Source: a virus. From it: a stretch of 64,000 bases of DNA. How positions within the stretch are numbered: the first letter of the stretch is position 1; each line of letters begins with the position of its first letter. The position numbers and the translations under genes were made by a program. Of this stretch, positions 3,581-37,145 are shown piece by piece. The DNA lies in the IMG/VR virus record IMGVR_UViG_3300002462_000001; one strand, 5' to 3'. The notes below the pieces were generated by a model, which saw only the letters and a list, made by a program, of their open reading frames with translations, made no database searches and was not told where the DNA came from.

Positions 3581-3823
3581 TTAATCAGATTGATTAACGG
3601 CCGTTTTACTGGACAGTTTATATAACTGCTGAAACACCCACTTTGGCCACGGCTCTACTCGCGGACGAAATAAAAAACCATCAGTGAGAACATCCCACAC
3701 AAGCGGGGTATCAGTTCCAGAGATATAACCCTGCGGAGCAGCAGCTTCTACAGCAGCTAGCAATTCGTCCTTATTCTCCAACGTAATCTCCTGCGGCTCA
3801 GGAACAGGCGGTAATTTTTCCAT
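3581..3823 (-). CDS. Small hypothetical protein (80 aa) under repeated sigma70/GGA-hairpin leader
   Basis: ORF with SD AAGGGAG and conserved upstream module. Confidence 0.75.
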   Translation of the reverse strand: MEKLPPVPEPQEITLENKDELLAAVEAAAPQGYISGTDTPLVWDVLTDGFLFRPRVEPWPKWVFQQLYKLSSKTAVNQSD

Positions 3824-3904
3824 TTCACATCTCCCTTGTTAAAAGTTGAAATTCCATTCAACAATATCTACCGCAAATTTAACAGGTTTTTAGAGGTTTG
3901 TCAA
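3821..3904 (-). promoter_or_regulatory. Sigma70 promoter + GGA stem-loop + SD module, copy 1
   Basis: TTGACA(3899-3904)-17 bp-TAAATT(3876-3881); hairpin GTTGAA-TGGAAT-TTCAAC (3845-3862). Confidence 0.85.
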
Positions 3905-4365
3905 CCGCGAAGCCAGTGACCTTTGTGCCGCGCGTAAATCAATGTACCTCTTAGCGGAACACTCACAAACGCTTCCGAGATAATGATCGACACATCATAT
4001 ACGAACGCATTCGTTTTACCTACGCGTGTGATGTTTACACGATTCACTTTCGATTTTGGATGAACCAGCACGTGACATAACTGCTCACGCAATTTATCGG
4101 CATCAGTTACTTCATCTTCAGGAGGACCGCCAAGGTTAATTTTCATAGTCACCTCCATGTCTCCGTTAGACATCTGGAAAAAATCAAGATCTACAATATA
4201 GCCGGTAGATACAGCAGAATTAACAACGTTACACCAACGCACCTGCTCCCAGTCTGTTAACCGGTCCGGTTCGGGCTCAGATAACATTTCTGCTGAATAT
4301 AACAAGGGCGTACTCAGCCCCACAACCGACAATACCGTAGCTTTTAGAAAATCTCTTCGTTTCAT
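3901..4365 (-). CDS. Hypothetical protein with twin-arginine (Tat)-like signal
   Basis: N-terminus MKRRDFLKATVLSVVGL. Confidence 0.7.
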   Translation of the reverse strand: MKRRDFLKATVLSVVGLSTPLLYSAEMLSEPEPDRLTDWEQVRWCNVVNSAVSTGYIVDLDFFQMSNGDMEVTMKINLGGPPEDEVTDADKLREQLCHVLVHPKSKVNRVNITRVGKTNAFVYDVSIIISEAFVSVPLRGTLIYARHKGHWLRG

Positions 4366-4399
4366 AAGGTTTTATTAAAAATGTGCCGATGGCTTATCT

Positions 4400-4612
4400 A
4401 TGACAGCCATTATAGACGATTACTGGGTGTGCGCAAGATGCGGGCACAAAGTCCGAAAAAATAACGCACCGGCTAAATGCCTTGTTACCTATTTGGATGC
4501 GCAAGGAAACGAACACACGGAAATGTTAACGCCTTGCCTGCACAAGGGATGCCATCATGCACTGGAATTGCCAAGAAACTACTTCACCACAACTATCCAG
4601 ATTAACGGCTAA
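4400..4612 (+). CDS. Small Zn-finger-like hypothetical protein
   Basis: CARCG...C...CLHKGC pattern. Confidence 0.5.
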   Translation: MTAIIDDYWVCARCGHKVRKNNAPAKCLVTYLDAQGNEHTEMLTPCLHKGCHHALELPRNYFTTTIQING

Positions 4613-4620
4613 CCGCTAAA

Positions 4621-4863
4621 TCACCGCAGGCCATAATACCGGGATAAATCATTACCAAAAAGCCCAATACTGTTTGGCTTCGATATTGCCGGGTTTGATG
4701 CCGGCTGCTGCGGCATTTGCCTGGTTTGCTGTGCAGCCGCTTGCTGCGCTTGCCGCTGTGCTTGCTGAGTTGCCCGTATATCTGGATTTCCACGCCACGA
4801 TCCAGCCGCTGGAATCTGAGCAAATTTAACCGGAGAGGATTTACTGTTGAATGAAAGCTTCAT
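4621..4863 (-). CDS. Small Gln/Ala-rich protein with MKLxF..KFA leader
   Basis: ORF; N-terminus resembles cargo A; upstream TGGTAAAAT -10. Confidence 0.6.
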   Translation of the reverse strand: MKLSFNSKSSPVKFAQIPAAGSWRGNPDIRATQQAQRQAQQAAAQQTRQMPQQPASNPAISKPNSIGLFGNDLSRYYGLR

Positions 4864-4911
4864 GATTTTTAGTGAAAGTTAACTATGATAGTTATTTTAC
4901 CACACTACGAC

Positions 4912-5129
4912 GTGATACTCTTCAGGCTAAAGCCTGAAGCTTCTCTAAATTAGAGAATTATTCTCGCTTCATCAACTTTGCTACCCACATAATGGACATA
5001 GTCTTACTAAGTCTCCACGAATGTTGGTATCCCAACAACTGTTATTGTACCAAAGGTACTTTAACAATAAAAACCAAAATCGCACCTTATATCCTACGCC
5101 CTAAAGGGCGAGGGTTTACGGTGCTTTTG
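4912..5129 (-). mobile_element. Non-autonomous IS200/IS605 (IS1341-like) mini-element: left end + reRNA scaffold + right end, no ORF
   Basis: Left end CAAAAGCACCGTAAA..CGCCCTTTAGGGCG..GATATAAGGTGCG shared with the tnpB element at ~30228-30276; scaffold-like GGAGACTTAGTAAGAC..GATGAAGCGAGAA; right-end hairpin CTTCAGGC-TTTA-GCCTGAAG ending TATCAC. Confidence 0.8.
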
Positions 5130-5138
5130 CTCATTTTC

Positions 5139-5693
5139 TTAAAAAACAACTTCAGCACAAAGAGGAAACATCAGGGCAATAATCAGTAAAATAACCGTAA
5201 CAATGATTCCTACTATGTTGACGAATCTGGCTGCCTTTTTGTTCGTAAAACTTAACAACAGTGAAGTTATCACATATAGCGGCGCCACAATAACCGCCGT
5301 CACAAACACCCAAGACAGATTACTACGGATGTCTGATGTAATCTCTGCAACAGACTCAACCGCACCTAACCCAAGCAACATTAAAACCATAGCAACAGGA
5401 AATCCAATAAGAGACCTCATCAGCACTTTTGTGACCTTACTCCAACCGGCTCTCTCAGAAATAGGTCTTTCTGTGTGCCCGGCTGTAACCCAACCGTAAC
5501 ACCAAACAACCACAGCAATCAAACCAACGCCTACAATTAGCGCTGATGCCGAAATCAATAAAGGACCATCGCCAGTGATCACCGCCAAAGGAAACACCAC
5601 TGCTACCGTAAATAACAAAGTACCATAACCAATACAGGCAAACAATTCACGGCACAACCACACAATACTCCACGGCTTTATTTTACCGTCCAT
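5139..5693 (-). CDS. Polytopic membrane protein
   Basis: Several hydrophobic segments; sigma70 promoter and SD upstream. Confidence 0.75.
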   Translation of the reverse strand: MDGKIKPWSIVWLCRELFACIGYGTLLFTVAVVFPLAVITGDGPLLISASALIVGVGLIAVVVWCYGWVTAGHTERPISERAGWSKVTKVLMRSLIGFPVAMVLMLLGLGAVESVAEITSDIRSNLSWVFVTAVIVAPLYVITSLLLSFTNKKAARFVNIVGIIVTVILLIIALMFPLCAEVVF

Positions 5694-5789
5694 AATACAC
5701 CCCCATCAGATAGGAACAGAACAATTTCCGTTCACTTTTATGTACCGCAAATCACCGTTAAATTTAACACCTGACTTGAAGGGTGTCAA
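5691..5789 (-). promoter_or_regulatory. Divergent 4th copy of the sigma70 + GGA-hairpin leader
   Basis: TTGACA(5784-5789)-17-TAAATT(5761-5766); shared TTTGCGGTA; hairpin GAAC-GGAAATT-GTTC (5719-5733). Confidence 0.65.
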
Positions 5790-6038
5790 TCACGTCTTGG
5801 ACGAACACTCCAATTTATAGACAAGCGCGTAATCACCAAGAGTAGCCCATCTCTTATGCGTAAGATCCTTATCCGGCAACCAGTCGCAGTAGACATAAAT
5901 GACCGGTTTGTTTCGTAACTCACCCACCTCCGTACGTACAAACCAATCAAAACCCAGCACATCAACTAACTCTTCAAATATCAGAGCTACACGCTGCGGA
6001 CTAACACCTGTCTTTCCTCTCTTTTTTTCCTTCTTCAC
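5790..6038 (-). CDS. Hypothetical protein
   Basis: ORF with upstream GGTATAAT (6070-6077). Confidence 0.55.
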   Translation of the reverse strand: MKKEKKRGKTGVSPQRVALIFEELVDVLGFDWFVRTEVGELRNKPVIYVYCDWLPDKDLTHKRWATLGDYALVYKLECSSKT

Positions 6039-6089
6039 TGTCCACCTTTTGGGCTAAAGTTTTGAAACCATTATACCGAAAAGCACTCA

Positions 6090-6578
6090 ATGGACGAAAA
6101 ATTTATTTTGAACGTTTTGGAGCAAATTCCAACAGGAAAAGAGGTCTCTCTTGAAGATTTGAACATCGAAGGTCTGACATCAAAAAACCTTTACGAACTG
6201 CACCAGGCCGGACTCCTAACATATAGATTTGAGTACCATCACTGCACAACTGCCGATGGCCTGAAAATGAGCGCAGAAGTCTATCGCCGAAACGTCACCG
6301 GTACCAGATGGATTCTGGATTGCAAATTGCAGATGTCTATGGCAGGGTTGACGGATCAGATTGTGCGCCTAACTCGCACTCTAGTCGGGCTAACCTGGCG
6401 TCTAACTGTTCTAACTGTAGCAATACTGATTCTAACAGTACTATCTCTGGCTTTGGCTTATTACACGACCTATCGGGAAAAAGTAAACATACAAGAGCAT
6501 CATCTGAAGGCGCTAGCAGTATCCATAGCGACACACCCAAACACGCACCCATCAAACCTCCAGACAATCTGTCAATAA
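6090..6578 (+). CDS. Hypothetical protein, winged-helix-like N-terminus plus C-terminal TM helix
   Basis: Hydrophobic LTVLTVAILILTVLSLALAYY preceded by coiled coil. Confidence 0.55.
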   Translation: MDEKFILNVLEQIPTGKEVSLEDLNIEGLTSKNLYELHQAGLLTYRFEYHHCTTADGLKMSAEVYRRNVTGTRWILDCKLQMSMAGLTDQIVRLTRTLVGLTWRLTVLTVAILILTVLSLALAYYTTYREKVNIQEHHLKALAVSIATHPNTHPSNLQTICQ

Positions 6579-6633
6579 AATATGACGGCTTATCATATGC
6601 AGTCGAATCCTTACGTTTAAAAAATTTAAACAT
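6337..6633 (-). CDS. Possible small membrane/coiled-coil protein, antisense-overlapping 6090-6578
   Basis: ATG 5 nt after the stop of the endonuclease gene; TM-like and heptad segments. Confidence 0.4.
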   Translation of the reverse strand: MFKFFKRKDSTAYDKPSYFIDRLSGGLMGACLGVSLWILLAPSDDALVCLLFPDRSCNKPKPEIVLLESVLLQLEQLDARLARLECELGAQSDPSTLP

Positions 6634-6637
6634 ACTG

Positions 6638-8686
6638 CTACTTTTTCAAAAGCTCATAACTTATCTTACCCGCATCATAAATACGATACCAACCAAGACA
6701 CTCAGTCATCTCCTTCTCAGTCCAATCTCTGGACTCAGGAGGTAAAAACTCTCCAAAATTTTGACGAATTTTTTTCTTTGTAAAATTAAAACGGTAGTAT
6801 CTACGACCAGTATCAAATCCGACGTGAACCATATCTGTCCAATACCAATAAGCCGGTTCTACAATACCATATGATTGAAAGCCGTGATTTAAATAAATGT
6901 TATTATTTGGGTCAACCCATCTTAAATCAGCATAACTGTATAGCCTGTTGGTCATTGTCAATAAATAATTAACCAGCTTAGTAAACGCACCTGGAACAGA
7001 TTTTGTAATATCTGTTGCGAATCTACTAATCTCCAGCCCTTCTTGCGGACTACTTCCCTCCCTTGATAGCTGAGATTTATTAACAGTGACTACGGCCACT
7101 GGCATATCCGCATAAAACAAACCAATATGCCGCCCGCGACAAAACCCCTGAATATGATTTTTAACCATAAATCCACGAGCTATGCTCGGCTCAACCGACT
7201 GAACTGCACACTTACGCGCGCCAACTACAGGTTTATCCGCCGAACCGCCAAAAATATGGCTCAACTTGTCAACTACAATATCTCTAGTAAACTCCCATTC
7301 GTCTTCAAATATCTGTATTAAACGAATTCCTGATTCCTGACAAGCTAGATACTTATTGTAATGATAATTTTGCTCCAATCGCGGACTACTGTGCCAAAAT
7401 AGCCCGTTAAATTCAATTGCTAATTTTTGTTCAGGATAATACAGATCTAATTCATGACCTTTTACAGCGTTTTTTATATTAGTATAATCTGTCGGAAAAA
7501 GAGAGCATAACTCTATTTCAGGTTGCGAACGAAAACGCTCAACATATTTATAAAAGTCTAACCTTTTGAGTAAAGCGCAAACATACGCATGTGAGTAATT
7601 AAGCATTTTGGCTACCTCAAACGAAGTAGGCTTTCTCTGCATTATCTCTTGAACACTTATTAAAAATCGCTCAAATAAATCTTCATCCTTTGTAACCAAT
7701 ATCTGCTGTTGACTTTTATCCTGCTGTTCATGGTGCTCAGCCCCATAACGCTCTAAACATGTTTGCCGAGCCTTACGGTTTACTGCTGGATTTAGTAATG
7801 AGCAACCAGCACCATAACGCTGCAAATTTGTCTGACGCACCTTTGACTTGATCGCACAACTTTGTGCGACATTCTCAACACCGTACCTTTCCTTGTTTGT
7901 TTGCTTACTTTTATCCTGAAATTCTTTTACTTGAAAAGCATTTTCAACACAGTAACGATGTAAATTTGTCTGCTTTATTTTATCCCTAATATCCGCACAG
8001 CGCATCGGATGATCAACACCATATTTTTTTTGAAATGTTTGTTTGATTTTTCTCTTTATGTGCGCAGACTGACAAATATGATCAACGCCATATCGTATTT
8101 GACACGTTTTTTTAGTCTTCTCTTTCATAATATCGGTTTGACAAAAATTCTCCTTTCCGTATTTTTTTAAACACGTTTTCCTACGTCCGGTCACAACCAA
8201 TTCACCGTCTTTAACTATACCGTGATATTTAGCACTTTTGCATACTGTTGACACTGATGTGTTAAGTATTGTTGCTACCTCACTAACAGATAGATTCTGA
8301 CGAATATAAAGATCATAAAGGTACTCTTTTGAAATAGCCTGGTAAAGTATTTCTTTTTTAATGTTGCGATATTCAAGCGCTCGCTGCACTACACAAGACG
8401 AAACACCCAATCGCTCTGCGATCTGCGCCTGCGATAAGTTTTCAGTAATATACAGATCATAGAGGTAATCCCTAGGTATTGTTTTATAAATAGCTGTATC
8501 CTTCTTCGAAATACCATGATAACAAAGAGCGGTCCTTAACACTTTACTTGAAATACCTAAATGCTTCAGGATTTGATTGCGTGGTAGACGTTGAGTTATG
8601 TACAGATCATACAAAAGATCTTTTGATACTGTCTTATACTTGGCCATAGCGTTTAACATACTGTGAAGTCTTTTTAAATTTTTCAA
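6638..8686 (-). CDS. Free-standing homing endonuclease, Hef/Vsr-like PD-(D/E)XK with repeated DNA-binding modules
   Basis: 3x YDLYI..LG.S..AL.YHGI HTH repeats, ~7x K.KQT..RYGV repeats, SQPEIEL..ELDLYYPEQKLAIEFNGLFWHS nuclease core, GNAT-like C-terminus. Confidence 0.8.
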   Translation of the reverse strand: MKNLKRLHSMLNAMAKYKTVSKDLLYDLYITQRLPRNQILKHLGISSKVLRTALCYHGISKKDTAIYKTIPRDYLYDLYITENLSQAQIAERLGVSSCVVQRALEYRNIKKEILYQAISKEYLYDLYIRQNLSVSEVATILNTSVSTVCKSAKYHGIVKDGELVVTGRRKTCLKKYGKENFCQTDIMKEKTKKTCQIRYGVDHICQSAHIKRKIKQTFQKKYGVDHPMRCADIRDKIKQTNLHRYCVENAFQVKEFQDKSKQTNKERYGVENVAQSCAIKSKVRQTNLQRYGAGCSLLNPAVNRKARQTCLERYGAEHHEQQDKSQQQILVTKDEDLFERFLISVQEIMQRKPTSFEVAKMLNYSHAYVCALLKRLDFYKYVERFRSQPEIELCSLFPTDYTNIKNAVKGHELDLYYPEQKLAIEFNGLFWHSSPRLEQNYHYNKYLACQESGIRLIQIFEDEWEFTRDIVVDKLSHIFGGSADKPVVGARKCAVQSVEPSIARGFMVKNHIQGFCRGRHIGLFYADMPVAVVTVNKSQLSREGSSPQEGLEISRFATDITKSVPGAFTKLVNYLLTMTNRLYSYADLRWVDPNNNIYLNHGFQSYGIVEPAYWYWTDMVHVGFDTGRRYYRFNFTKKKIRQNFGEFLPPESRDWTEKEMTECLGWYRIYDAGKISYELLKK

Positions 8687-8691
8687 AATAA

Positions 8692-8720
8692 ATTATACAG
8701 TACTACACAAGTAATGTCAA
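8692..8720 (-). promoter_or_regulatory. Consensus sigma70 promoter of the endonuclease gene
   Basis: TTGACA(8715-8720)-17 bp-TATAAT(8692-8697) with TG just upstream of -10. Confidence 0.85.
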
Positions 8721-8740
8721 GTAGCATTTTAGACCTTTTT

Positions 8741-11700: not shown

Positions 11701-13147
11701 GCTTAATGCCCATTCGTGGCTGCCTGTCGCTGTCAAATGCCGCAATTCTAGGCGCATCGCTGTCCCACTCCGACTGAAGCGTAAGACGAGACTTGGCTAA
11801 CTCCACAGGATTCTTGTACTCCTGCTTACCTGTTTTAGCGTTGATTACCGGTACATACAAATCGCCAGTTGAACTCTTAAGAGCACTGCTGCTGATGTAC
11901 GTGTCAACACCGGCACGTAACGATTCAGGTGTCTGCAAAGGATCAATAAACCCAAACATCGTGTTGTTTACTTCCCTCGCTGAATCCGGAATTGCTGACA
12001 CATCGCCGATCGCACCGCTGCCCATTCGAGTAACGCTAAACAGCTTACTGTACATGTCATACGGGTTTATCTCTTCAGCAGGTGAAGCCAGACCGCTCTG
12101 AGTAATAACCGCATTAAGCTGCTTCGTAAGAAGTCCAGGAGGTATCTTACTGAGGTCAGGATTATTCTTAGAGAGAAAAGTTAATTTATTAAGAGCCTGC
12201 CTTCTGACCCTGCCGTCATCTAGCTTGAGACGCTCTGCAAATAAATCCTCAGGTCCCATAAACCGTTGAAACTGCATAGCGTCTCTGTTGTCGCTATCCA
12301 CCTCTCCTCTGGCCAGCCGCATCAATTTAGACGAAGCAGCAATAACATGCCGCTTGTCAAATACATCGTCGTCAATATCTAAATTCGTTCGGCTAACCTC
12401 ACGGGCAAACTTTATCGCCTTAGCCTGCTCCTGTATCCGCTGACGCATTATTTCATCGCTATCCTTGTCGCCAGGCCTATGATATTGCTTCCTGACAAAC
12501 CTGTCGTAAAGCTTCTTCATGTTCATATCCTTTGCCTGCGCTTTGTTTATGTCCAACACACGCTTTCCCCACGCAGCCTCTAACTCCTCGTCAGTAGCGC
12601 CCATCGCGTTGAGAAAGGTGTAAAGCGGGATGTGGTTCTTACTAATCTCCATGCTAAACTTACCAGTCTTCGGGTCAAACTGATAAGCGTGAGTAGGACC
12701 TTCATGCGAAGCCGCATTAACATTGGAAATGAACTCTCCGTTCTCCTTCATTCGAGTGTAAATACCATTCTTCAACCGTTGCTGGCTCTTTATATAGTAC
12801 ATCGTACCGTTATCCATAATACCGCCGTTTGGCAATACATACGGAACATGAGCCAAGAGTTTTTTGGAGCGTTGAATCGGCTTCCCAGTCTGCGTATCAG
12901 ACAGAGTCCATACACCATGCAACTTACGCGTTAAAGACTTCTGCTGAAGACGAGCCTGGTGTATGTCGTGAGCGTTATACTCCGGAGAATCGCCCCAACT
13001 CACGTCAGAAATACTCAAAGTATAACGGTTGTTCTGAGCCGGAGGTAAATTGCTCGCAGTGTCAAAGACCGACGAAAATACGGCTTCACGAAGAGCGTCA
13101 GTGTCGTCGAAAGCCCTAAGCTTTAATTGAGGAGGAGGTGTAGACAT
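8741..13147 (-). CDS. rpoBC: Fused RNA polymerase beta + beta' N-terminal half (catalytic subunit)
   Basis: beta motifs FGFIDPLQTPE, GDKCSNRYGNKGVI, FIQKLHH, PEMFHKFM; beta' motifs GLFDPKIFG, VPVIPPKFRP, DRSPVLHK, YSMDTDGD, MLPSQNLLSP. Confidence 0.96.
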   Translation of the reverse strand: MSTPPPQLKLRAFDDTDALREAVFSSVFDTASNLPPAQNNRYTLSISDVSWGDSPEYNAHDIHQARLQQKSLTRKLHGVWTLSDTQTGKPIQRSKKLLAHVPYVLPNGGIMDNGTMYYIKSQQRLKNGIYTRMKENGEFISNVNAASHEGPTHAYQFDPKTGKFSMEISKNHIPLYTFLNAMGATDEELEAAWGKRVLDINKAQAKDMNMKKLYDRFVRKQYHRPGDKDSDEIMRQRIQEQAKAIKFAREVSRTNLDIDDDVFDKRHVIAASSKLMRLARGEVDSDNRDAMQFQRFMGPEDLFAERLKLDDGRVRRQALNKLTFLSKNNPDLSKIPPGLLTKQLNAVITQSGLASPAEEINPYDMYSKLFSVTRMGSGAIGDVSAIPDSAREVNNTMFGFIDPLQTPESLRAGVDTYISSSALKSSTGDLYVPVINAKTGKQEYKNPVELAKSRLTLQSEWDSDAPRIAAFDSDRQPRMGIKRDQIDYIMPNAQGAYNALSNLIPMIGSVKGQRVAMAARMLTQSLPLEGGEAPLVQSKVPGTEDESYEDRVGRFATVNSKADGVVKRVTDDSIVVDTADGEKTYPMIKDSPTNRKTVVSHSPLVQPGQRITKGQVLAKSNFTDDTGALAQGLNARAVVMPWRGSNTMDGIVISQSFADRMKSQHAYQHRIDWTDNIKQGKNTFIGAFPGIYDKDQLETIDDNGIVKVGTKVSQGDPLVLKADVNTKPVDRIHRKGANSLMNSALEWDNEDPGVVTAIHTDKNGVNVIVKSLQPMRVGDKCSNRYGNKGVINEIVPDDQMPMTPDGPAMICFSPISNIGRVNHAMLHEHVLGRIAKKLGRPIKIESFDPKNPDTAEYVMKLAKEHGINIRDAVTDPETGKQITGVDGKGIGWGYGFIQKLHHSAEGKESSRSFGRYTADGQPASGGENGAKRVALMHTNALVSHGAYNVLADARRIRGAKNDLFWASFMRGYTPPEPEQPEMFHKFMAHLEGSGIHVVPKAGKFKMMALTNDDVKELAGNREVKNSETIKWEGDKKGIANGLFDPKIFGEYGDRWGYIKPTQPVLNPVMEEPARRILGLTQAKLESVIAGRESIGVHGTGPQAIQKALLAVNVDQEILRARAVVADGRGTKRDEAIKRLQFLKSAKDNKLTPADWMLDRVPVIPPKFRPVSEMTGSKTALVADVNYLYKQFIDHNDSVKELERQIGDAGEEYLQSYNYFKQITGLMDPTHPKLVQKRVSGLLKNVFGDGSSKYGMVQRSLLGGGVDNVARNVITINPQLDMDEVGIPINSAYEIYKPVIIRKLVRGGVPLMQAQDMYNSKDRRAKQALLQATKERPVVVDRSPVLHKYGIMALWPRLVKGDAMHMNQYVSSGYSMDTDGDALNFQVPISDEAVDEAKRLMLPSQNLLSPLNREPMFTALEDWQQGLYEGSRTRKKKGRAKVFATVEDMKRAYRAGEVSLSDEVEILKK

Positions 13148-13154
13148 ACCTACA

Positions 13155-13191
13155 ATTATAGCCCGAATCGGTCTAGCACCTGTGCTATAAT
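13155..13191. promoter_or_regulatory. Back-to-back -10 promoter pair, copy 2
   Basis: ATTATAGC-N21-GCTATAAT; ATGs 7 nt (13147 minus) and 6 nt (13198 plus) away; shares GAATCGGTCT with copy 1. Confidence 0.8.
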
Positions 13192-13197
13192 GAAATT

Positions 13198-14265
13198 ATG
13201 AGTTACAAATGTGGTGGTTTTGATCTAGAGTTTCTGTCAAAATGTGTTTTGAAAAATCCAAAGTACCCACCTGGATACGTGCCTGGTGCGGGTATTGCTA
13301 AACTAGCCGGTGGTGTAATTATTCCAGGTATTGGATTTGTGCGATTGAACCCTGATTGCAACGAACGTCTTAAGAAAGCGGGCTATGTTCCTGGTGCGGG
13401 TATTGCTAAATTGGTGGCTGATTCACGTAACAAACAGTTGGAAAAGCTCGGTTTTATGCCGCTTGCTTTACGCGCTGGCGCTAGTCTTAAGACGTTATTG
13501 CCAACTATAAAAAAGAAACTTTTCACCTATAGAGGTCCTCAATTTGTAAAATCTCCGTTGGGACAGGCTGCCTTAGCTGGCGGTCTTGGAGCTGGAACTT
13601 TGGGCGGTAGCCTTTTAGGTGTTGATTATTTAAATCATGGGCCGCCACTTAGAGATTTAGCTGGCAGGCGTGCGGCTAACCCAGATGAAAACAATGCACA
13701 CTGGAGAAATGGAAAACCAATGAATATTAGTGGTTTAACGCCGCAACAGCGTGAAGATGCATATACATTGTTTGACGCGATGCATAACAACAAAAGAACA
13801 CAGCATCTGAGTTACCCGTCTATCCGCGTTAACCCAAAGCTACAGAATCCGCAATATAGCCCGTTATGGAACACAATACAGTTGCCCACAAAATCAAGTC
13901 TAAATGAGATGTTTCACGAAGGGGCGCACCGTACTACATACGGTACTACTTTTTGGAATCCGGTGAATAATATTCGGTTTCGTGGGCCAGGACTAAGGTT
14001 TTCGCAAAACTACCTACAGAATGAGTCTCGCACAGCAAGAGACCATTTCGAACTAAATCAACACGCACCAAAAAATCGCCAACTTACAGAAAAAGAGATT
14101 GCTGATTTTTGGAGAAATAATCTTACAGGGCATGCCAGTAACTACAAAGACTACAATCAGGTATGGAAAAAGTTCATGCGTAATCATAAACCATTCACGC
14201 AGTCAGATATGAATTCGAGCTTATGGTCACTACCGCAAACACTACCTGAGGGCTTTAATAATTAA
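13198..14265 (+). CDS. Cassette cargo protein B, putative zincin metallopeptidase domain
   Basis: Leader LKNPKYPPGYVPGAGIAKLA (partly duplicated), Gly-rich hydrophobic segment, NEMFHEGAH (HExxH) with downstream Glu (NESRT). Confidence 0.7.
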   Translation: MSYKCGGFDLEFLSKCVLKNPKYPPGYVPGAGIAKLAGGVIIPGIGFVRLNPDCNERLKKAGYVPGAGIAKLVADSRNKQLEKLGFMPLALRAGASLKTLLPTIKKKLFTYRGPQFVKSPLGQAALAGGLGAGTLGGSLLGVDYLNHGPPLRDLAGRRAANPDENNAHWRNGKPMNISGLTPQQREDAYTLFDAMHNNKRTQHLSYPSIRVNPKLQNPQYSPLWNTIQLPTKSSLNEMFHEGAHRTTYGTTFWNPVNNIRFRGPGLRFSQNYLQNESRTARDHFELNQHAPKNRQLTEKEIADFWRNNLTGHASNYKDYNQVWKKFMRNHKPFTQSDMNSSLWSLPQTLPEGFNN

Positions 14266-14289
14266 AAAAAAACCGCATTACTGTGCGGT
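14264..14289 (-). terminator. Intrinsic terminator between convergent genes
   Basis: ACCGCA-ttactg-TGCGGT stem preceded by an A run on + (U-tract on -). Confidence 0.7.
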
Positions 14290-14305: not shown

Positions 14306-14542
14306 TTAGTTGCTACACTCTTCTAAATCTGTTTTCTGCGTAGCAATTTCTATCGATTCTGTACCTTCTTCAGGTTTAGTTGGTTCTTCCTGAAGCAATT
14401 TATGCATCACTTCCATACGTTCACGGTGTCCAGCGTTACGGGACTCCAAGAAACAACTGTGACTATAAGCCAAAACAGCTCCCAGAAGCACTAATGCAAT
14501 AAGCAGCTCAATTAACGTAAAACCGTAATTTGCTCTTTCCAT
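14306..14542 (-). CDS. Small prepilin-like protein (class III signal peptide)
   Basis: MERANYG|FTLIELLIALVLLG: G-1, F+1, E+5, hydrophobic helix. Confidence 0.75.
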   Translation of the reverse strand: MERANYGFTLIELLIALVLLGAVLAYSHSCFLESRNAGHRERMEVMHKLLQEEPTKPEEGTESIEIATQKTDLEECSN

Positions 14543-14624
14543 AACTCACCTCCATTGGTTAAAAGTTGAAATTCCCTTCAACAATATCTACCGCAAATTT
14601 ACCTAAATTTTAGAGGTTTGTCAA
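14540..14624 (-). promoter_or_regulatory. Sigma70 promoter + GGA stem-loop + SD module, copy 2
   Basis: TTGACA(14619-24)-17-TAAATT(14596-601); GTTGAA-GGGAAT-TTCAAC (14565-82); SD GGAGGTG. Confidence 0.85.
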
Positions 14625-18845: not shown

Positions 18846-19223
18846 AAATAGGTATGGATGATATAGCGCGAACTCATCCCAACCACACAAATCACCCGGT
18901 AAAACACCAGAACTACGGCCGCGATCTTCAGGTATACTTTTTGACCGCTCAGCAAGATGTTTCTGCACATCCAAAAGGTATTTTGCGTCTAAACACCTTG
19001 CAATCAGGTATCTGTAACATAAATAATAAATTATGGGATGCCTGAAACGAAACGCATACATATACCCCACGAAATCGTTAACATACCGCCAATAATAAAA
19101 CTCGAAGTCAATCAGCCCTTCTTCTTTTGCTCGATTCTCCGGTAACCTGTCAGGCTCAACGAATAAATACATGATAATTTCCGTGAAGTTTTCCAGCATT
19201 ATAGCACAAGTCGACGAAAACAT
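18765..19223 (-). CDS. Hypothetical protein
   Basis: ORF downstream of the minus arm of promoter copy 3; true start likely internal. Confidence 0.5.
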   Translation of the reverse strand: MFSSTCAIMLENFTEIIMYLFVEPDRLPENRAKEEGLIDFEFYYWRYVNDFVGYMYAFRFRHPIIYYLCYRYLIARCLDAKYLLDVQKHLAERSKSIPEDRGRSSGVLPGDLCGWDEFALYHPYLFLFVYLFKSSKHLLTSVTKKVGRFVKS

Positions 19224-19233
19224 AAGTTATAAT
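19198..19233. promoter_or_regulatory. Back-to-back -10 promoter pair, copy 3
   Basis: ATTATAGC-N20-GTTATAAT, then TGAGATT-ATG identical to copy 1. Confidence 0.75.
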
Positions 19234-19240
19234 TGAGATT

Positions 19241-20317
19241 ATGACAATGAAAATTGAATACAGCGGTTTTGGTACAATACCTCTGACAAGCTGGATTTTG
19301 AAAAATCCAAAGTACCCACCGGGATATGTGCCTGGCGCCGGACTTGCAAAGATGGCAGCTGACGCTAAATTAGCGCAGTTTAAGCGTGACTATCCTGGTC
19401 TGGCAGCAATGTTCGACGACAGTGAAAAAATGTACGATAGTGAACCAAAACTCTTTAAATCCGCAGCGTACAAACGTCACGCGCACAGATGTAAAACCGG
19501 TCTACGGTTCAAGTCAGCGTCAGGAGACAGCGCGGATCTTGCTTACGCTGCGACACCCGGCGGCGCAGGAGCAAACGCTGCAACACTAATAGATGCAACG
19601 AGTAAAATTGTTCCACCGTTACCTGACCCGAGTACGACCCATCCTGACACATCTATTGCAAAGGCGACAGCACTTAACACACTAGCAACCGGTAAGCAAC
19701 TGCCCGCGAACACACCACATAACATACGCCAAGATATCGAAAATGCAAAAGATACGCTCACAGTCAACCAATTCAATAATGATTTTCTTGGACCAGCGGC
19801 GCACGTTAAAAACACTGATATCCATAGAAACACACAAATGGCAGCATTTACAGCCGCAACAGTTCCGTCTGCTGCAAGCGGGCTAGCTAAACATCCGATG
19901 ATTGCCCCTGTATTTAAGCCGTTTCAAAATCGGATACCGTCAACACTGTTAAATGCGGGAAAATCCGTTGGACTACGATTTATTCCGGGCGTAGGCTGGG
20001 TAACACTTGGAGCAGAAGCAGGAAGTTACATGTTAGATCGAGCAGATAACCATCGATTTAACCAAAACCCAGGACTCTACACCTGGCACAACTACTCTCC
20101 AGAGCGAACATGGTACCAATACTTTACTGCGTCTACAACATCAGATAAGATGCGCACCTGGGTCAACCTGCAACCGGAAGAAACTAAACAACGGATACTA
20201 AATGACCAGCAAAAAAAGCTCGAACAACAGGAGCAACGTAAAAACCGCTCATGGGGACAGACACTTAATGATTCTATGGAAGCATACGGTAACAGTCTCA
20301 GATATCAAAGCCGATAA
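19241..20317 (+). CDS. Cassette cargo protein C
   Basis: Leader LKNPKYPPGYVPGAGLAKMAAD; Ala/Gly-rich, FIPGVGWVTLGA hydrophobic hairpin. Confidence 0.75.
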   Translation: MTMKIEYSGFGTIPLTSWILKNPKYPPGYVPGAGLAKMAADAKLAQFKRDYPGLAAMFDDSEKMYDSEPKLFKSAAYKRHAHRCKTGLRFKSASGDSADLAYAATPGGAGANAATLIDATSKIVPPLPDPSTTHPDTSIAKATALNTLATGKQLPANTPHNIRQDIENAKDTLTVNQFNNDFLGPAAHVKNTDIHRNTQMAAFTAATVPSAASGLAKHPMIAPVFKPFQNRIPSTLLNAGKSVGLRFIPGVGWVTLGAEAGSYMLDRADNHRFNQNPGLYTWHNYSPERTWYQYFTASTTSDKMRTWVNLQPEETKQRILNDQQKKLEQQEQRKNRSWGQTLNDSMEAYGNSLRYQSR

Positions 20318-20327: not shown

Positions 20328-20356
20328 AAAAAAAACTAAGGGAATAATTCCCCTAG
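20328..20356 (-). terminator. Intrinsic terminator between convergent genes
   Basis: A run then CTAAGGGAA-taa-TTCCCCTAG stem. Confidence 0.6.
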
Positions 20357-20366: not shown

Positions 20367-20528
20367 CTAAAGCTTCCCCCACCAATCAAAAAAGATACAC
20401 ATCGCCGTCCAAGTTAAAAGCCCCAGTAAAAACAGCACCCACAAAGCATCAAACGCGGGCTGCCAAGTAGGTTCGGAATCACGCCGACGCTCGGCCTCAC
20501 CCGCCTGTTCTCCAATTTCTTTTTCCAT
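20367..20528 (-). CDS. 53 aa single-pass membrane protein (missed by ORF track)
   Basis: Hand translation MEKEIGEQAGEAERRRDSEPTWQPAFDALWVLFLLGLLTWTAMCIFFDWWGKL*; SD GGAGGTG as in copy 2. Confidence 0.75.
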   Translation of the reverse strand: MEKEIGEQAGEAERRRDSEPTWQPAFDALWVLFLLGLLTWTAMCIFFDWWGKL

Positions 20529-20610
20529 AACTCACCTCCATTGATTAAAAGTTGAAATTCCCTTCAACAATATCTACCGTAAATCTACCTAAATTTTATC
20601 GACTTGTCAA
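20526..20610 (-). promoter_or_regulatory. Sigma70 promoter + GGA stem-loop + SD module, copy 3
   Basis: TTGACA(20605-10)-17-TAGATT(20582-87); GTTGAA-GGGAAT-TTCAAC (20551-68). Confidence 0.85.
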
Positions 20611-27165: not shown

Positions 27166-27170
27166 GTGAT

Positions 27171-29026: not shown

Positions 29027-30276
29027 TTGACATACTCCACACCCTAAATGGCGGGGATTCCTTGTGCTTCCACAGACCGCCTTGCTTTACGCAAGGTCTT
29101 ACGTTGTGTATGTTTTACATCGCACAGAGAGGCAATGCCCTGCCTCTTTATGTTGATTGCGGCATTTACATCACGGTCATGGTTGACTCCGCAACACGGA
29201 CAAGTCCATGACCTTTCACTTTTGAGTAGTTTTCTGTCCAACTTCTTCTCGCATGCAGAGCAAATATGACTAGACGCATAAAATCTAACTACTTTGACAA
29301 CTCTAGTATCGTACTTCGTTGCGATATACTGCAACTTCTGGATGAATGAACCAAGTGCCAAATCAGAGACCTTACGACCCCAAAGTCTTATCCATCCTTT
29401 CAAACACAAATCTTCAATACAGATGACATCGTAGGATTTGCACAACTCGTGGGCTAACTTCCACTGCCAATCCTCTCTCTGGCAAGAGATATGATAATGA
29501 AAATTATTGAGGTGTTTCCTCGCTCTGCGCCTATTATTACTACCTTTCTGCTTTTTGGAAAGTCTCTTCGATAAACTTCTATATTTATCGACCTGTTGGA
29601 ATAAAAATCGTGGTGATGCGATAGTCTCACCTGTATCTTTCGTTGCAAAGGTTATCAATCCAAAGTCTAAACCAACCGTCCCATTACAGGCTCGTGAAAG
29701 TTTCTTTGGCTGAATATCGCAACTCATACAGATGAAGTATCTATCACCACTTTTCTTAACTACTATTTGTTTGACATTATAATATTCACAGGATTTGTGA
29801 AACCTGAATGTACCCACTTTGTTTATCTGGAATTTATTATCTTCCAGTTTGAAACCTGATTGGGTAAACCGGATTGAACCACCTTGTCTAATCTTCTTGA
29901 ACTTTGGGGGTGCTTTCTGTAACTTATTGAAGAATCTTTGGTAAGATTCGTCAAGTTTCTGTACTACACCTTGCACAGTTTGACTGTTGAGCTTCATCCA
30001 ATAAGAATTGCGTTTCCTTTTCTTAGCGATAAACTTCTGCAGCTGACTAACACTCAGATATTTACCGTAGATTCGATAGGATAGTTTCTGAATGGTCAAA
30101 GCATAATTCCAAATATAGTTAGACGTAACAATTAACTCACCGAGCCGGCTGTTACGCTTATTCTTATGATAGAGTTTATACTTGAAATTTTGCATACAAC
30201 GATTATACCTTAAATTGATTTCGGCAACGCACCTTATATCTAGTAGTCTAAAGTCTATAAATTTACGGTGCTTTTG
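29027..30276 (-). mobile_element. IS200/IS605-family (IS1341-like) tnpB-only element
   Basis: Left-end motif upstream of tnpB; right end GAATCCCCGCCATTTAGGGTGTGGAGTATGTCAA. Left boundary approximate. Confidence 0.85.
29044..30195 (-). CDS. tnpB: RNA-guided endonuclease TnpB
   Basis: HTH N-terminus, VGLDFG, ICIEDL, CSAC/CPCC Zn ribbon, HDRDVNAAINI: RuvC D-E-D intact. Confidence 0.95.
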   Translation of the reverse strand: MQNFKYKLYHKNKRNSRLGELIVTSNYIWNYALTIQKLSYRIYGKYLSVSQLQKFIAKKRKRNSYWMKLNSQTVQGVVQKLDESYQRFFNKLQKAPPKFKKIRQGGSIRFTQSGFKLEDNKFQINKVGTFRFHKSCEYYNVKQIVVKKSGDRYFICMSCDIQPKKLSRACNGTVGLDFGLITFATKDTGETIASPRFLFQQVDKYRSLSKRLSKKQKGSNNRRRARKHLNNFHYHISCQREDWQWKLAHELCKSYDVICIEDLCLKGWIRLWGRKVSDLALGSFIQKLQYIATKYDTRVVKVVRFYASSHICSACEKKLDRKLLKSERSWTCPCCGVNHDRDVNAAINIKRQGIASLCDVKHTQRKTLRKARRSVEAQGIPAI

Positions 30277-30831: not shown

Positions 30832-30843
30832 AGAATATACAAT

Positions 30844-32504: not shown

Positions 32505-32514
32505 ATTGATCTCC

Positions 32515-32757: not shown

Positions 32758-32758
32758 G

Positions 32759-33199
32759 TTACATGATGGGTCTAGGTTTTGTGTTTGTTTTCATCATTTC
32801 ATAAATGGAGTCATACTCACTCTGAGGTTTAATAACCCTATATCTATTAAGCACTTCAATATAAACATGCATACTCTTAGTCTTATCGTCCCAATGCCGC
32901 TCTACAAAAACAGTTTTATGCCATCCGCAAGCAGTCGCATTTACCAACGTCTGATACTTTTTAAGATGTTCCTCTTTCGATAAATCAAAAGTAAATACTG
33001 ATGCCAGTTGAGTAACAGGTATTTTCAATACTTCCTCGGGCCGAACCGCGGCATCAGCACCCGGTTCAACAAGATATGGAAGAGTATCTTCAACTCTAGA
33101 CCCAAAAACATACCTACCCACGCTAGGATCGTGTAAAATCCCGGGAGGCATATTGTCGGCAAACTCTTTTAACGAAATAGGGCGCTTGAGATCGGCCAT
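32759..33199 (-). CDS. Hypothetical protein
   Basis: ORF in coupled run. Confidence 0.65.
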   Translation of the reverse strand: MADLKRPISLKEFADNMPPGILHDPSVGRYVFGSRVEDTLPYLVEPGADAAVRPEEVLKIPVTQLASVFTFDLSKEEHLKKYQTLVNATACGWHKTVFVERHWDDKTKSMHVYIEVLNRYRVIKPQSEYDSIYEMMKTNTKPRPIM

Positions 33200-33783: not shown

Positions 33784-33790
33784 TTAACTG

Positions 33791-34951
33791 CTATTCAAAA
33801 CCAAAAAATCTAGCCAAGGAACTCTTAATCGTCGGCTCCTCTACCTTCATATCAACATTACCGACTCTGGACAACTTGTCAAACACCGCTTTATTGGGCT
33901 TCAACCCACCAAGAGCAACATACACACGCATCGAATCAGGCTTTGCCTCGTTCACATACACAGCAGGATGCAAAAGCATGTCCTTCTGTTTGCTGCTGTT
34001 ACGCAACAAATCCAACCCGCCCATCAACTCCTCAGTACTAAATGTGTTGAGCACGTTCTCACCAGCAACCACAATACATACTCCCTGCGTTGCCTTGCTA
34101 ATGTCTACGTCCGCCAAAGTTGCCGATTGGAAGGTGTCCATAATCGCCCTAGCAACTACATCACTTCCTTCTTCCCAGTTAGAAACGCCGGAAACACCGA
34201 AAGTAATCATGCCGCTATCCAACAACTGACTCAAATCAGAACTGTCGAATGTCTGCTCAGACGGCATTGCAGCCATCGTATTAAACGCATGAAGCAGATT
34301 AGCCACACCTTTATTAGCATCAGAATTACGCTTTGCGTAACTGGAGTTATGAATCTTGGCGACACGGGCGTTATCGATAATAACCATCGGAGTAGGATTA
34401 AGCACCAAAAACTCAGCATACGCATAAATAGCATTTTTCGCTACACGGCTCCCTTCTTGCTCCATCGGCAAGGATAGAATACATCCTATCTTGGCGTTCA
34501 TGCCCTTAGACTCGATGTACTCCTGCAAATACTTGAAAATAACCGGACCCATTCCAGAACCAGTACCGCCTCCAAGACCAGCACAGATGAATACATACTC
34601 AAAGTCAGTACCCAAAATCTCCTCAATATATCTGAGCAGCTGTACCCTAGTTGAGGGCTTCAAAACACATTCTCGTGCCTTGGACGGGTCTTTACCAGCT
34701 CCGCCAATACTAAGATCTACAAAATCAAGATCAGCAGAAAGACCTTTGCGATCCTGCTCGCAGGTGTTGGCCGCCATAGCTCGGCGGTAGCCCTTCTTGA
34801 AGAACTCATCGACTATCCTGCCGCCGGCAGCCCCACACCCTATAAACGCAAACTTCTTCGCAACAGGCTCCGAAAACTCGTCTGCCAGATTTAGCTCCTT
34901 TGAATCCTCTACCGGATGTACCTCTAAAACTTCTTCGTCAAAAATGGACAT
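33791..34951 (-). CDS. Tubulin/FtsZ-family GTPase (PhuZ/TubZ/CetZ-like)
   Basis: FIGCGAAGGRI, AGLGGGTGSG signature, T7-like FDSSDL. Confidence 0.92.
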   Translation of the reverse strand: MSIFDEEVLEVHPVEDSKELNLADEFSEPVAKKFAFIGCGAAGGRIVDEFFKKGYRRAMAANTCEQDRKGLSADLDFVDLSIGGAGKDPSKARECVLKPSTRVQLLRYIEEILGTDFEYVFICAGLGGGTGSGMGPVIFKYLQEYIESKGMNAKIGCILSLPMEQEGSRVAKNAIYAYAEFLVLNPTPMVIIDNARVAKIHNSSYAKRNSDANKGVANLLHAFNTMAAMPSEQTFDSSDLSQLLDSGMITFGVSGVSNWEEGSDVVARAIMDTFQSATLADVDISKATQGVCIVVAGENVLNTFSTEELMGGLDLLRNSSKQKDMLLHPAVYVNEAKPDSMRVYVALGGLKPNKAVFDKLSRVGNVDMKVEEPTIKSSLARFFGFE

Positions 34952-34967
34952 AGTGTACTTGTGAAAT

Positions 34968-34984
34968 TGCTCTCGCGCGAGAGT
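34968..34984. promoter_or_regulatory. 17 bp element TGCTCTCGCGCGAGAGT with perfect 14 bp palindrome (copy 1)
   Basis: Between a CCTATAAT -10 and the tubulin start; identical copy at 59356-59372. Confidence 0.6.
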
Positions 34985-35308
34985 GTCTTTTCGTGTGATT
35001 ATAGGGCTTAGCCGCCGTAGCGCAAGCCTATTTTCAAGAAAAATCAGGCTATCTGTACAACCTCAACGAACCATCCACATCCGCAATACATGTATTGCCC
35101 CTATAATTCTTAGTCAAAGTAGGTGTCCAAGGCCGCTCATCAAGCAGTGATGTCCGCCAGACGTACCAATCATCATAAAGACTGTTGCTATAGGGCAGAT
35201 ACGCCCATTTAAGGTTATCACGCCTGCTCTGACATTTAGCGTAGCCGACCGATAATAACGCAAACTCCAAATCACTGGACACACCGTACAGGTCGAACAT
35301 TGTCGGAT

Positions 35309-35677
35309 TTACAGACATCGTTTTATAGGCTGCAATGCAGAAATGTCGCCCTGTAACTCGTCGTAATCGTCCTTGTCGTAGCCCGACCACACATTATCAC
35401 TGCCCTTGACCCAAACCAAGATACTGCCGCCATAATGCTCAAGTTCAACACCGCATTCAATCATGCCGTGATACGGCCACTCGGGATCCGGCATGCCGGC
35501 CTCCCCATTGTCAAACCGTGTGTAAAATTTTTCAGCCATCGGACGAATATCTAACCATCGCACAAAACAATTACCCTGAACATTCAACAACGCATCAGCT
35601 AAACGCTCAAAAACAACTAGATCAAAATCATACTCGTCCTTATCAGTTTGATGAATTAAAGCAAAGATATGTTCCAT
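35309..35677 (-). CDS. Hypothetical acidic protein
   Basis: ORF track. Confidence 0.55.
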   Translation of the reverse strand: MEHIFALIHQTDKDEYDFDLVVFERLADALLNVQGNCFVRWLDIRPMAEKFYTRFDNGEAGMPDPEWPYHGMIECGVELEHYGGSILVWVKGSDNVWSGYDKDDYDELQGDISALQPIKRCL

Positions 35678-35683
35678 AGTGTT

Positions 35684-36382
35684 TTACAGGGCTGCAACAT
35701 GCTCATCTTGTAACTGTTTTAGCTGCTCTGCTTTTTTGCAAATGCCCTCTATCATCCGGTCAGTTGCTGCACATTCATTCTCAAAGTCCTCACGATACGC
35801 AATGTACTGTGTTACATCGGTATGTATCTCATCGACAATTTTAAGCTTCTCCTCAGCCCAATTACGTTTTTCAACTGTATCTATGCTCGGCTTGACGATA
35901 TCCCAATCGTTAGCATATACATCAGCGCACGGAAAATTAACATGCTTGTTTATGTCATCTTCGTCGTGCCACATTACTATACATCCGCTCTCATCTATTT
36001 TATGCTTCCAGCTACCATTTTTACGTTTAACAGTGTGCCCTCTCTCCAAAGCATTCATAGCCTCTAAGAAGGACATATCTGTTTCTTTCGTCATTGCATC
36101 GCCGGATAGAGAACTCCGCGGCGGTACATATTCAGACGACAGTTTTGCTCCAAGACTACGCTCCAGTAGATACACTGACGACTTTAACTCACCGACCTGA
36201 TGTTGCAGACTGCATACCATATCGCGCCTCTCCTCCGAAACATAAGCAAGTCTGTTTATAACAGCTGCCGCATCAGGGCAAATACGCTTAATCATCTCAA
36301 TATTCAGGTCGGTGTGCCCGCCAAAACATTCTTTTATTGCAAACGATATAGCATTATCAACTCTCTCTTTAATCATCCTCAA
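35684..36382 (-). CDS. Protein with internal DUF2829/Tad2-like domain
   Basis: MSFLEAMNALERGHTVKRKNGSW...ADVYANDWDIV. Confidence 0.6.
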   Translation of the reverse strand: MRMIKERVDNAISFAIKECFGGHTDLNIEMIKRICPDAAAVINRLAYVSEERRDMVCSLQHQVGELKSSVYLLERSLGAKLSSEYVPPRSSLSGDAMTKETDMSFLEAMNALERGHTVKRKNGSWKHKIDESGCIVMWHDEDDINKHVNFPCADVYANDWDIVKPSIDTVEKRNWAEEKLKIVDEIHTDVTQYIAYREDFENECAATDRMIEGICKKAEQLKQLQDEHVAAL

Positions 36383-36501
36383 GATCTCCTTTTTGTTTTT
36401 CTTCTACTTGGTTATCCTCGCACACTTCACATGCCTCGATAACCAACACACCCTCTTCTTCGTGCGACTTTTTAGGTGCGCCGCAACACTCACAAACATG
36501 T

Positions 36502-36954
36502 TCAGCCATCATGATCCTCGATTGTTCTGCTTTCAAAAAAATCTAAACAATTCTTAATACAAGTATCACTATAGTCAGCCACCTCACCTACCAAATCTAC
36601 CACAATGTCATGATATAAAGACATAACTGAAGCCGCTACAACACTCTGAAAAGCAATAAATGATGGATCATCAGGCTTAAGGTCAGCATCTTGAAACGCT
36701 TCATAAGGATCGCGTTTAACGTCATTACTCAAAAGATCAGTAAAATACCTATCATAAAACCTAACCGCCTCAAGCAGCCCTTCTTTGGTAGCACCGCGGT
36801 CGTACAGAAATTGGCGCATCTCTTCACCCTCCGGGTCAGTGACCCAGCCAGCAGCGAGTTTAACTGCTTGAGGAAATAACGTAATTACAGAATCTGTAAT
36901 CGTAGTAAATTGTGCACTGGAATTTTTATCTCTTACTCTTACCTTTTTTGTCAT
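36502..36954 (-). CDS. Hypothetical protein
   Basis: ORF coupled to csrA. Confidence 0.6.
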   Translation of the reverse strand: MTKKVRVRDKNSSAQFTTITDSVITLFPQAVKLAAGWVTDPEGEEMRQFLYDRGATKEGLLEAVRFYDRYFTDLLSNDVKRDPYEAFQDADLKPDDPSFIAFQSVVAASVMSLYHDIVVDLVGEVADYSDTCIKNCLDFFESRTIEDHDG

Positions 36955-37145
36955 AATTTTGCCTTAGTTAAGTGTTTAGCGTCGTCTCGCACAATAGATA
37001 CATTCGCCGGAGCAGATATACCTATTCGTACATTTTTCTCCGTAATTTTACATACAACGATCTCTATATCGTCGCCAATCAATATTTTTTGATCTTCTGC
37101 TCTGGATAACACCAAATATGATTTATCTTTGTTTTGTTTTCCCAT
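36951..37145 (-). CDS. csrA: Carbon storage regulator CsrA/RsmA
   Basis: LVLSRAEDQKILIGDDIEIVV..NVRIGISAPANVSIVRDD. Confidence 0.95.
   Translation of the reverse strand: MGKQNKDKSYLVLSRAEDQKILIGDDIEIVVCKITEKNVRIGISAPANVSIVRDDAKHLTKAKL

Follow-up and report, generated by a model that had tools for sequence, protein, structure and literature searches.

The DNA considered here is a window of 64,000 nucleotides (nt) from the viral record IMGVR_UViG_3300002462_000001 of IMG/VR, corresponding to positions 107,675-171,674 of a metagenome contig of 186,885 bp. The genes found in the window include those for a fused beta-beta'N RNA polymerase (RNAP) subunit and a separate beta'C subunit, together with those for a DNA polymerase, a helicase and a UvsX-like recombinase, and the window also carries homing endonucleases and a TnpB. 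The source is a jumbo-type phage of an unstudied lineage. By RNAP protein, the nearest named phages are Salmonella phage Arash and Vibrio phage D69, at 28% identity only; no close relative at the DNA level was found among annotated phages, and neither the RNAP protein nor two patterns of the leader gave a match when scanned against IMG/VR. The features under study, i.e., three short leaders containing a hairpin with a GGA in its loop, a fourth leader and a csrA gene, all lie on the minus strand. A previous sequence-only reading of this window had proposed that the leaders form a matching set of targets of the phage-encoded CsrA.

In the 140,183 bp that we could recover by extending the contig stepwise via the proteins at the locus ends, a census of the promoter family to which these leaders belong distinguished four leader types. 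The type-1 leader, which contains the hairpin, occurs in seven copies, at contig positions 44835, 63193, 71706, 102531, 111578, 122298 and 128284, the last three being the window copies. In the window copies, read on the minus strand, its parts follow the order TTGACA, 17 nt, TA(A/G)ATT, T(G/A)CGGTAGATATT, the hairpin GTTGAA-(U/G)GGAAU-UUCAAC, UUUUAA, a Shine-Dalgarno (SD) sequence and AUG. The -35 box TTGACA is invariant among the copies, with a -10 box TA(A/G)ATT. The similarity between copies spans the region from the -35 box to the AUG (about 85 nt), outside of which the flanks and the open reading frames (ORFs) are unrelated. A 34-nt pattern around the hairpin, over which the three window copies are identical, occurs three times in the window and never in 100 shuffles. 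The three window hairpins are therefore copies of one cassette and count as one observation, not three. Thus, of the matching set described in the sequence-only reading, the likeness of the three leaders holds, but they are not independent sites, and the fourth member, as reported below, does not conform. In our opinion, the leaders probably derive by copying from a single portable cassette for early expression, about 85 nt long, which is reused along the genome and doubles as a recombination joint.

The first window copy (3821-3904) combines TTGACA-N17-TAAATT, the invariant GGTAGATATT, a hairpin at 3845-3862 with the loop UGGAAU, the SD GGGAGA and the AUG at 3823-3821; behind it lies an acidic ORF of 80 amino acids (aa; 3581-3823, minus strand), with no family match, and a terminator at 3529-3549. 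In the second copy (14540-14624), the hairpin at 14565-14582 displays the loop GGGAAU, the SD is GGAGG and the AUG is at 14542-14540, followed by a 78-aa mini-prepilin ORF (14306-14542, minus strand) with an N_methyl motif and by a bidirectional terminator at 14272-14289. The third copy (20526-20610) features the -10 box TAGATT, a hairpin at 20551-20568, the SD GGAGG and the AUG at 20528-20526, and it precedes a 53-aa ORF with a hydrophobic C terminus (20367-20528, minus strand) and a hairpin resembling a terminator at 20336-20356, with an A/T run flanking it. The three loop-GGA hairpins had been correctly located by the sequence-only reading, and so had the GGA within the SD; the distance from the hairpin to the AUG, previously given as 22-23 nt, is instead 21-22 nt. 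Each leader presents three GGAs, located in the loop, in the SD (GGGAGA or GGAGG) and in the overlap with the start codon (AUGGAA), with spacings of 21-22 and 13 nt. The ORFs behind the seven copies are unrelated to each other: besides the 80-aa, 78-aa and 53-aa products, they encode proteins of 66, 73 and 134 aa and a 343-aa ADP-ribosylglycohydrolase. The small ORFs end at terminators, which supports the interpretation of these units as cassettes.

According to the mechanism that we propose, the cassette would provide, in this order, a near-consensus promoter of the sigma70 type (TTGACA-N17-TAAATT), an invariant start region, a weak A/U-rich hairpin of 6 bp, a U-run, a strong SD GGAGGUGA and the AUG(GAA). 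The phage would use it at least seven times for unrelated, mostly small accessory ORFs, arranged in short units that end at terminators and are often oriented against the neighbouring genes. The copies, being nearly identical, would also serve as sites of homologous recombination, by which segments may be inverted or swapped between related phages. Transcription would take place early and through the host RNAP, and the hairpin/SD part would act as a post-transcriptional control point.

The role as a recombination joint can be recognized in two related phages, in both of which the breakpoint of the rearrangement falls inside the cassette. In L007, a sequence matching contig positions 120840-122298 at 97.8% switches, within the cassette, to the inverted segment 102626-101101 at 92.6%. 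A joint such as this (L007 1366-1459) is what recombination between two copies in inverted orientation, 102531(+) and 122298(-), is expected to yield, and the rearrangement amounts to a 19.7-kb inversion containing the RNAP genes. In L008, the flank of a type-2 promoter (contig position 62414) is maintained up to the promoter spacer, followed by a type-1 leader in front of a new prepilin-like ORF (61 aa), and the sequence rejoins that of the contig at 64511; here, 2.07 kb are replaced by 0.42 kb, with the joint at L008 1552-1643. A metagenome scan with the leader pattern returned four contigs, one of which (L005) is another part of the same genome. In L001 to L004, relatives with RNAP 64-75% identical, neither the cassette nor an analogous repeated promoter was found within 10 kb. 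A scan of genome contigs for the hairpin core gave 20 matches from unrelated phyla, with flanks about 25% identical, as expected by chance, and no copy of the leader in a host; no Rfam family matches the leader. As a separate observation, mini-prepilins, i.e., short ORFs that match Pfam N_methyl (1e-7), the prepilin cleavage/methylation motif, and lack a pilin head, are placed behind the cassette in two related phages (window 14306-14542, minus strand, and L008 1633-1818).

For the analysis of conservation, we compared nine copies, namely, the seven genomic ones and those of L007 and L008. The pairwise difference is 31% in the promoter spacer versus 0-6% in the -35 box, the -10 box, the start region and the 5' arm of the hairpin, and about 10% in the loop, the 3' arm and the SD. 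The low divergence of the leader compared to that of the spacer indicates that selection has kept the leader, whose similarity does not stem from recent copying alone; judging from the alignment, it is under purifying selection. The longest invariant block, the 16-nt GGTAGATATTGTTGAA (alignment columns 33-48), spans the putative transcription start site and the 5' arm, and it is explained by neither the hairpin nor CsrA. As for the folding, the window hairpins have low stability (-5.5 to -5.7 kcal/mol): taken in isolation, the hairpin reaches z = -2, and the full leader folds no better than shuffled sequences. A covariation test of the hairpin found zero informative pairs, and the sole changes within the helix break pairs, the 3' arm being TTAAAC, with an internal G.A mismatch, in two copies and TTCAAA in one copy. 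The variant with G in the loop can form a 7-bp stem with a GGAA tetraloop, and the 5' arm can alternatively pair with a conserved CUUUUAA run, which still leaves the GGA in a loop. The loop GGA, whose lack of conservation in relatives would, according to the sequence-only reading, refute the proposal, is single stranded in a hairpin located 5' of the SD in all three window copies and in six of the seven genomic copies, and it is kept in both relatives; the exception is the copy at 63193, where GAGAAU replaces the GGA loop and no stable hairpin is formed.

The closest known counterparts of this arrangement are the PeSL cassettes of T4-like phages, which combine a sigma70 promoter close to the consensus with a stem-loop, an SD and a start codon, precede variable ORFs and mark points of indel and exchange (PMC4122927). 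The two systems have in common short, highly conserved, multicopy modules made of promoter, stem-loop, SD and start codon in front of variable, mostly small ORFs of no known function (Arbiol et al. 2010, PMC2839356; Comeau et al. 2014, PMC4122927), and in both of them the insertions, replacements and rearrangements that distinguish related phages have their breakpoints within the cassette. Different from PeSL, one of the rearrangements reported here is an inversion between inverted copies. As a DNA element, the cassette is PeSL-like; it belongs to a new phage lineage, and its stem-loop has been displaced into the leader. Independently of CsrA, our results carry the notion of promoter cassettes acting as joints for the shuffling of accessory genes over from T4-like phages to an unrelated jumbo-type lineage, and the extension includes a large inversion carrying the RNAP genes.

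Several points weigh against such an interpretation. The PeSL stem-loop is located upstream of the promoter, where it terminates the preceding unit, whereas here it lies within the transcribed leader and has a GGA loop; at -5.5 kcal/mol, it is too weak for a good terminator, and no PeSL-type terminator stem-loop was found just upstream of the promoter, where the flanks are unrelated between copies. Moreover, this phage is not T4-like, since it has its own beta/beta' RNAP and a tubulin homologue, and the presence of a phage RNAP along with a sigma-like protein makes early timing and dependence on the host polymerase less certain. The census covers 140,183 of the 186,885 bp of the contig, and the cassette, taken by itself, leaves the invariant 16-nt block and the hairpin without a selective reason.

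The other leaders on the same promoter family show what the type-1 hairpin does not share with them. Type 2 comprises two copies (contig positions 62414 and 101774), with no hairpin and with two GGAs near the AUG. Type 3 is the fourth leader of the window (5691-5789, minus strand), which has TTGACA-N17-TAAATT and TTTGCGGTACATA in common with type 1 and precedes a 184-aa multi-pass membrane ORF (5139-5693, minus strand). This leader had been described in the sequence-only reading as a further GGA-loop hairpin, at 5719-5733, but in its preferred fold (GAACGGAA/UUCUGUUC, -8.4 kcal/mol, z = -4) the GGA is buried in the stem, and its SD, GGGGG, does not contain a GGA, so that the description is not confirmed. 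Type 4 is represented by one copy (contig position 49904), in which the common TAAATTTGCGGTAGATA is followed by an unrelated leader without any GGA. The submotif TTGCGGTA(G/C)ATA reappears in the type-3 and type-4 leaders, which lack the hairpin, with a downstream displacement of 15 nt in type 3. The type-4 promoter unit adjoins the gene for the sigma-like protein (246 aa; L034 13993-14733, contig about 49.1-49.9 kb), which displays sigma-70 region 3 and a helix-turn-helix (HTH) resembling region 4 and could redirect either polymerase.

The csrA gene (36951-37145, minus strand) encodes 64 aa, of which the first 9 residues extend the N terminus ahead of the CsrA core. It is complete, as previously proposed: its product scores 64.9 bits against the Pfam CsrA family (PF02599), with a cutoff of 27, residues 11-55 covering profile positions 2-46 of 53. 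In the alignment with the CsrA/RsmE structures 2JPP, 5Z38, 2BTI and 1VPZ, the equivalents of L2, L4, R6 and R44 (E. coli numbering), which contact RNA from strands beta1 and beta5, are L11, L13, R15 and R52, position 7 is occupied by Ala instead of Arg/Lys and position 43 by Val instead of His. On the basis of this comparison, the phage CsrA looks functional. It is 33-38% identical to annotated phage copies, and the closest proteins (57-64%) are unnamed metagenome proteins and proteins of metagenome-assembled genomes labelled Clostridiales, Gracilibacter and Caproicibacter. The stop codon overlaps the next ORF (36502-36954), which encodes 150 aa and is translationally coupled to csrA; we considered it as a FliW-like partner and discarded the idea, as Pfam and PHROG returned nothing for it and the Atlas gave no match that could be used. 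A terminator-like hairpin of 14 bp with a U-run (37175-37206, minus strand) is located 30 nt upstream of csrA, and the 72-nt upstream gap does not contain a promoter of the sigma70 type. The csrA gene is not behind a cassette promoter, being placed after a strong terminator-like hairpin within a long block of replication and metabolism genes, and this position is compatible with later expression. The AUG of csrA is itself enclosed, as part of the loop, by a small UUUCC/GGAAA hairpin, and the GGA that immediately follows this codon makes up the 3' arm (window 37130-37225, minus strand), possibly an autoregulatory site.

As to what may act on the hairpin/SD part of the cassette, CsrA, of the phage or of the host, is the best named candidate. 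It is possible to hypothesize that a dimer of the phage CsrA docks on the cassette transcripts at two GGAs, those of the loop and of the SD, and maybe at AUGGAA, shutting off their translation after the early phase, an explanation that is plausible but that we put forward tentatively and consider somewhat unlikely. The three GGAs have spacings inside the bridging range of 10-63 nt, and the combination of loop and SD reproduces the glgC arrangement (PMC7652899); in fact, in the operators of Escherichia coli glgC and Bacillus subtilis hag, a GGA in a short hairpin loop and a GGA overlapping the SD can likewise be bridged by one CsrA dimer. The leader sequence A(G/U)GGA fits the ANGGA core, the equivalents of L2, L4, R6 and R44 are kept in the protein and the loop GGA is kept in almost all the copies. 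Most genes of the phage have no SD, and just 18 of 88 have a GGA at -18 to -4, so that a GGA binder would be fairly selective for cassette transcripts. A GGA-bearing SD is found in 8 of the 12 genes of the promoter class versus 32 of the 159 others, a contrast inflated by nonindependent copies; since 7 of those 12 genes share one cassette, we did not use this enrichment as independent support. Finally, csrA has been found in 1.2% of phage genomes (PMC7366521), and this rarity makes its coexistence with the cassette in one genome not trivial.

The same hypothesis meets a series of difficulties. All the copies descend from one cassette and thus provide a single evolutionary observation, the stem gives no covariation and its sole changes break pairs, the copy at 63193 has lost both the loop GGA and a stable hairpin, and in the relative L007 the SD is GAAGG, which does not contain a GGA. 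The consensus derived by in vitro selection (SELEX), RUACARGGAUGU, is not matched: the leader sequence UUGAA(G/U)GGAAUUUC agrees with the A-N-GGA core alone, and different from known CsrA/RsmA operators, the ACA/GU flanks are absent and the GGA occupies positions 2-4 of a hexaloop. In the G variant, closure by G.U leaves a GGAA tetraloop, which is a stable kind of loop that is common whether or not CsrA is involved. The type-2, -3 and -4 leaders of the same promoter family have no GGA-loop hairpin, the invariant start region is not accounted for by CsrA binding, and R7 is replaced by Ala in the phage protein. With the cassette excluded, GGA-loop hairpins upstream of genes number 6 of 88 versus about 4.6 expected from the window-wide density, with no enrichment. 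As a side observation, strong SDs of the GGAGG type are, over the whole window, largely confined to the cassette units, and most genes have A/U-rich upstream regions without an SD, which suggests either two classes of translation initiation or a host with little SD dependence.

Other explanations of the conserved leader have to be weighed against CsrA control. The invariant GGTAGATATTGTTGAA over the transcription start and the palindrome GTTGAA-N6-TTCAAC might act at the DNA level, as an operator for a DNA-binding protein of the phage or of the host that would switch off the early promoters, or GATATT (about +2 to +7) might be a -10-like element for sigma-dependent, promoter-proximal pausing; such a role appears to us unlikely, although it would fit the fact that the longest invariant stretch covers only the start region and the 5' arm, with a variable 3' arm. 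Since TTGCGGTA(G/C)ATA is present without the hairpin in the type-3 and type-4 leaders and is shifted by 15 nt in type 3, it is more easily understood as a DNA site than as a part of one RNA structure, and the palindrome is perfect in four of the seven copies. No candidate repressor was identified for such an operator, however, the hairpin arms of the fourth leader differ in sequence and provide no common half-site, the asymmetric conservation of the palindrome is unusual for a dimeric operator and the idea of pausing rests on a match at 4 of 6 positions. It is also conceivable, though in our view doubtful, that the leader is a cis-acting mRNA element with no dedicated trans-acting factor, in which a 5'-proximal stem-loop stabilizes the short transcripts of the early phase or prevents pairing of the strong SD, allowing these mRNAs to outcompete host messages. 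The hairpin begins about 6-8 nt from the putative start of transcription, the SD region is unpaired in all the predicted folds, and the cassette SD is by far the strongest in a genome where most genes have none; in addition, the 5' arm can pair with either UUCAAC or the conserved CUUUUAA run, and this dual pairing would explain why the 5' arm is invariant and the 3' arm drifts. On the other hand, the hairpin is weak and the full leader folds no better than shuffles, 6-8 unpaired nucleotides at the 5' end are many for a protective hairpin, and the conservation of the loop sequence is left without an account.

An antitermination site similar to nut/boxB, with a factor loaded at the conserved element and at a purine-loop (GNRA-type) hairpin, would let transcription read through the terminator, antisense to the plus-strand ORF, into the next minus-strand gene; we regard it as very improbable. 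What recalls it is the layout: each window cassette points towards the next gene on the minus strand, from which it is separated by a terminator and by a plus-strand ORF that converges with it. In two of the three cases, this is an RNAP gene; there, an early promoter, a conserved box, a GGAA-loop hairpin, a small ORF, a terminator and a convergent ORF precede the gene for beta-beta'N (13147) or beta'C (2422). Nevertheless, inspection by eye found no boxA-like CGCUCUUA in the leader, no N-like or Q-like protein was identified (no protein search was aimed at these), the RNAP genes have their own TATAAT-N7-ATG promoters and read-through would yield a long antisense RNA.

Returning to CsrA, its operation in this genome would have a parallel in T4, where the endoribonuclease RegB cuts GGAG in early SDs and the translational repressor RegA occludes about 30 initiation regions (PMC3014915). 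By analogy, the logic proposed here, a phage protein turning off early phage mRNAs through a short motif of the initiation region, may be the same, even though the protein families are unrelated and RegA sites are A/U rich and unstructured. Small CsrA homologues on mobile elements are otherwise known from phages and plasmids (Sobrero and Valverde 2020, PMC7366521; PTXU04 gp28, PMC11879866). A functional-genomics paper of 2025 called CsrA's part in the life cycle of a phage untested, and the knockdown of one phage csrA reduced plaque size (PMC11879866). In agreement with the sequence-only reading, the literature that we searched reports no mapped viral targets of a phage csrA, and a case in which both the regulator and its candidate targets belong to the phage has not been described. 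A broader proposal, which we consider rather doubtful, is that the cassette is a portable promoter combined with a CsrA operator, the phage CsrA, made later and from another transcription class, clamping the GGAs of loop, SD and AUG in every cassette transcript. If so, any gene recombined behind the cassette would automatically gain a control of the type "burst early, then silence," and, with most other genes lacking an SD, CsrA would be a selective early-gene shutoff, corresponding to T4 RegA but built on CsrA, and its viral regulon would be the first one mapped for a CsrA of phage origin. For the function of phage-borne CsrA, the leader, which is short, conserved and provided with three GGAs, offers a simple test object; the genome itself supplies natural controls, in the form of variants without the loop GGA or the stem and of sister leaders without the hairpin on the same promoter.

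Further observations concern the genes around the cassettes and the rest of the window. An apparently leaderless class of genes, with TATAAT followed after 6-8 nt by ATG, occurs at 13148-13197 and 2423-2462, and also at 19199-19240, 26529, 30195 and 59582. In near-palindromic gaps of 40-50 bp, back-to-back GCTATAAT boxes serve both RNAP genes, which start at 13147 and 2422, as well as the divergent ORFs (about 355 aa) on the plus strand. In all, three plus-strand ORFs of 355-360 aa (2463-3545, 13198-14265 and 19241-20317) are each convergent with a cassette unit; they have no Pfam match, and an N-terminal KNPKYPPGYVPGAG block is common to two of them, with an overall identity of just 22-23%. 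We also considered GCGGTA as a general promoter motif of the phage and dropped it, its occurrences being scattered through coding sequence. Among the mobile elements, a homing endonuclease of 682 aa with DUF7487 and an HTH (6638-8720, minus strand) is inserted directly after the gene for beta-beta'N and has its own perfect TTGACA-N17-TATAAT promoter, and the TnpB, of 383 aa, is encoded at 29044-30195. A HEARO RNA (Rfam RF02033, 125 bits) and a neighbouring 407-aa HNH protein make up an IscB-type element (48715-50184, minus strand), which sits between the DNA polymerase gene and the next gene. Lastly, the tubulin/FtsZ-family protein (33791-34951, minus strand; Pfam Tubulin, 7.9e-13) also displays a TubZ-like C-terminal domain, a kind of protein known as well from nucleus-forming jumbo phages.

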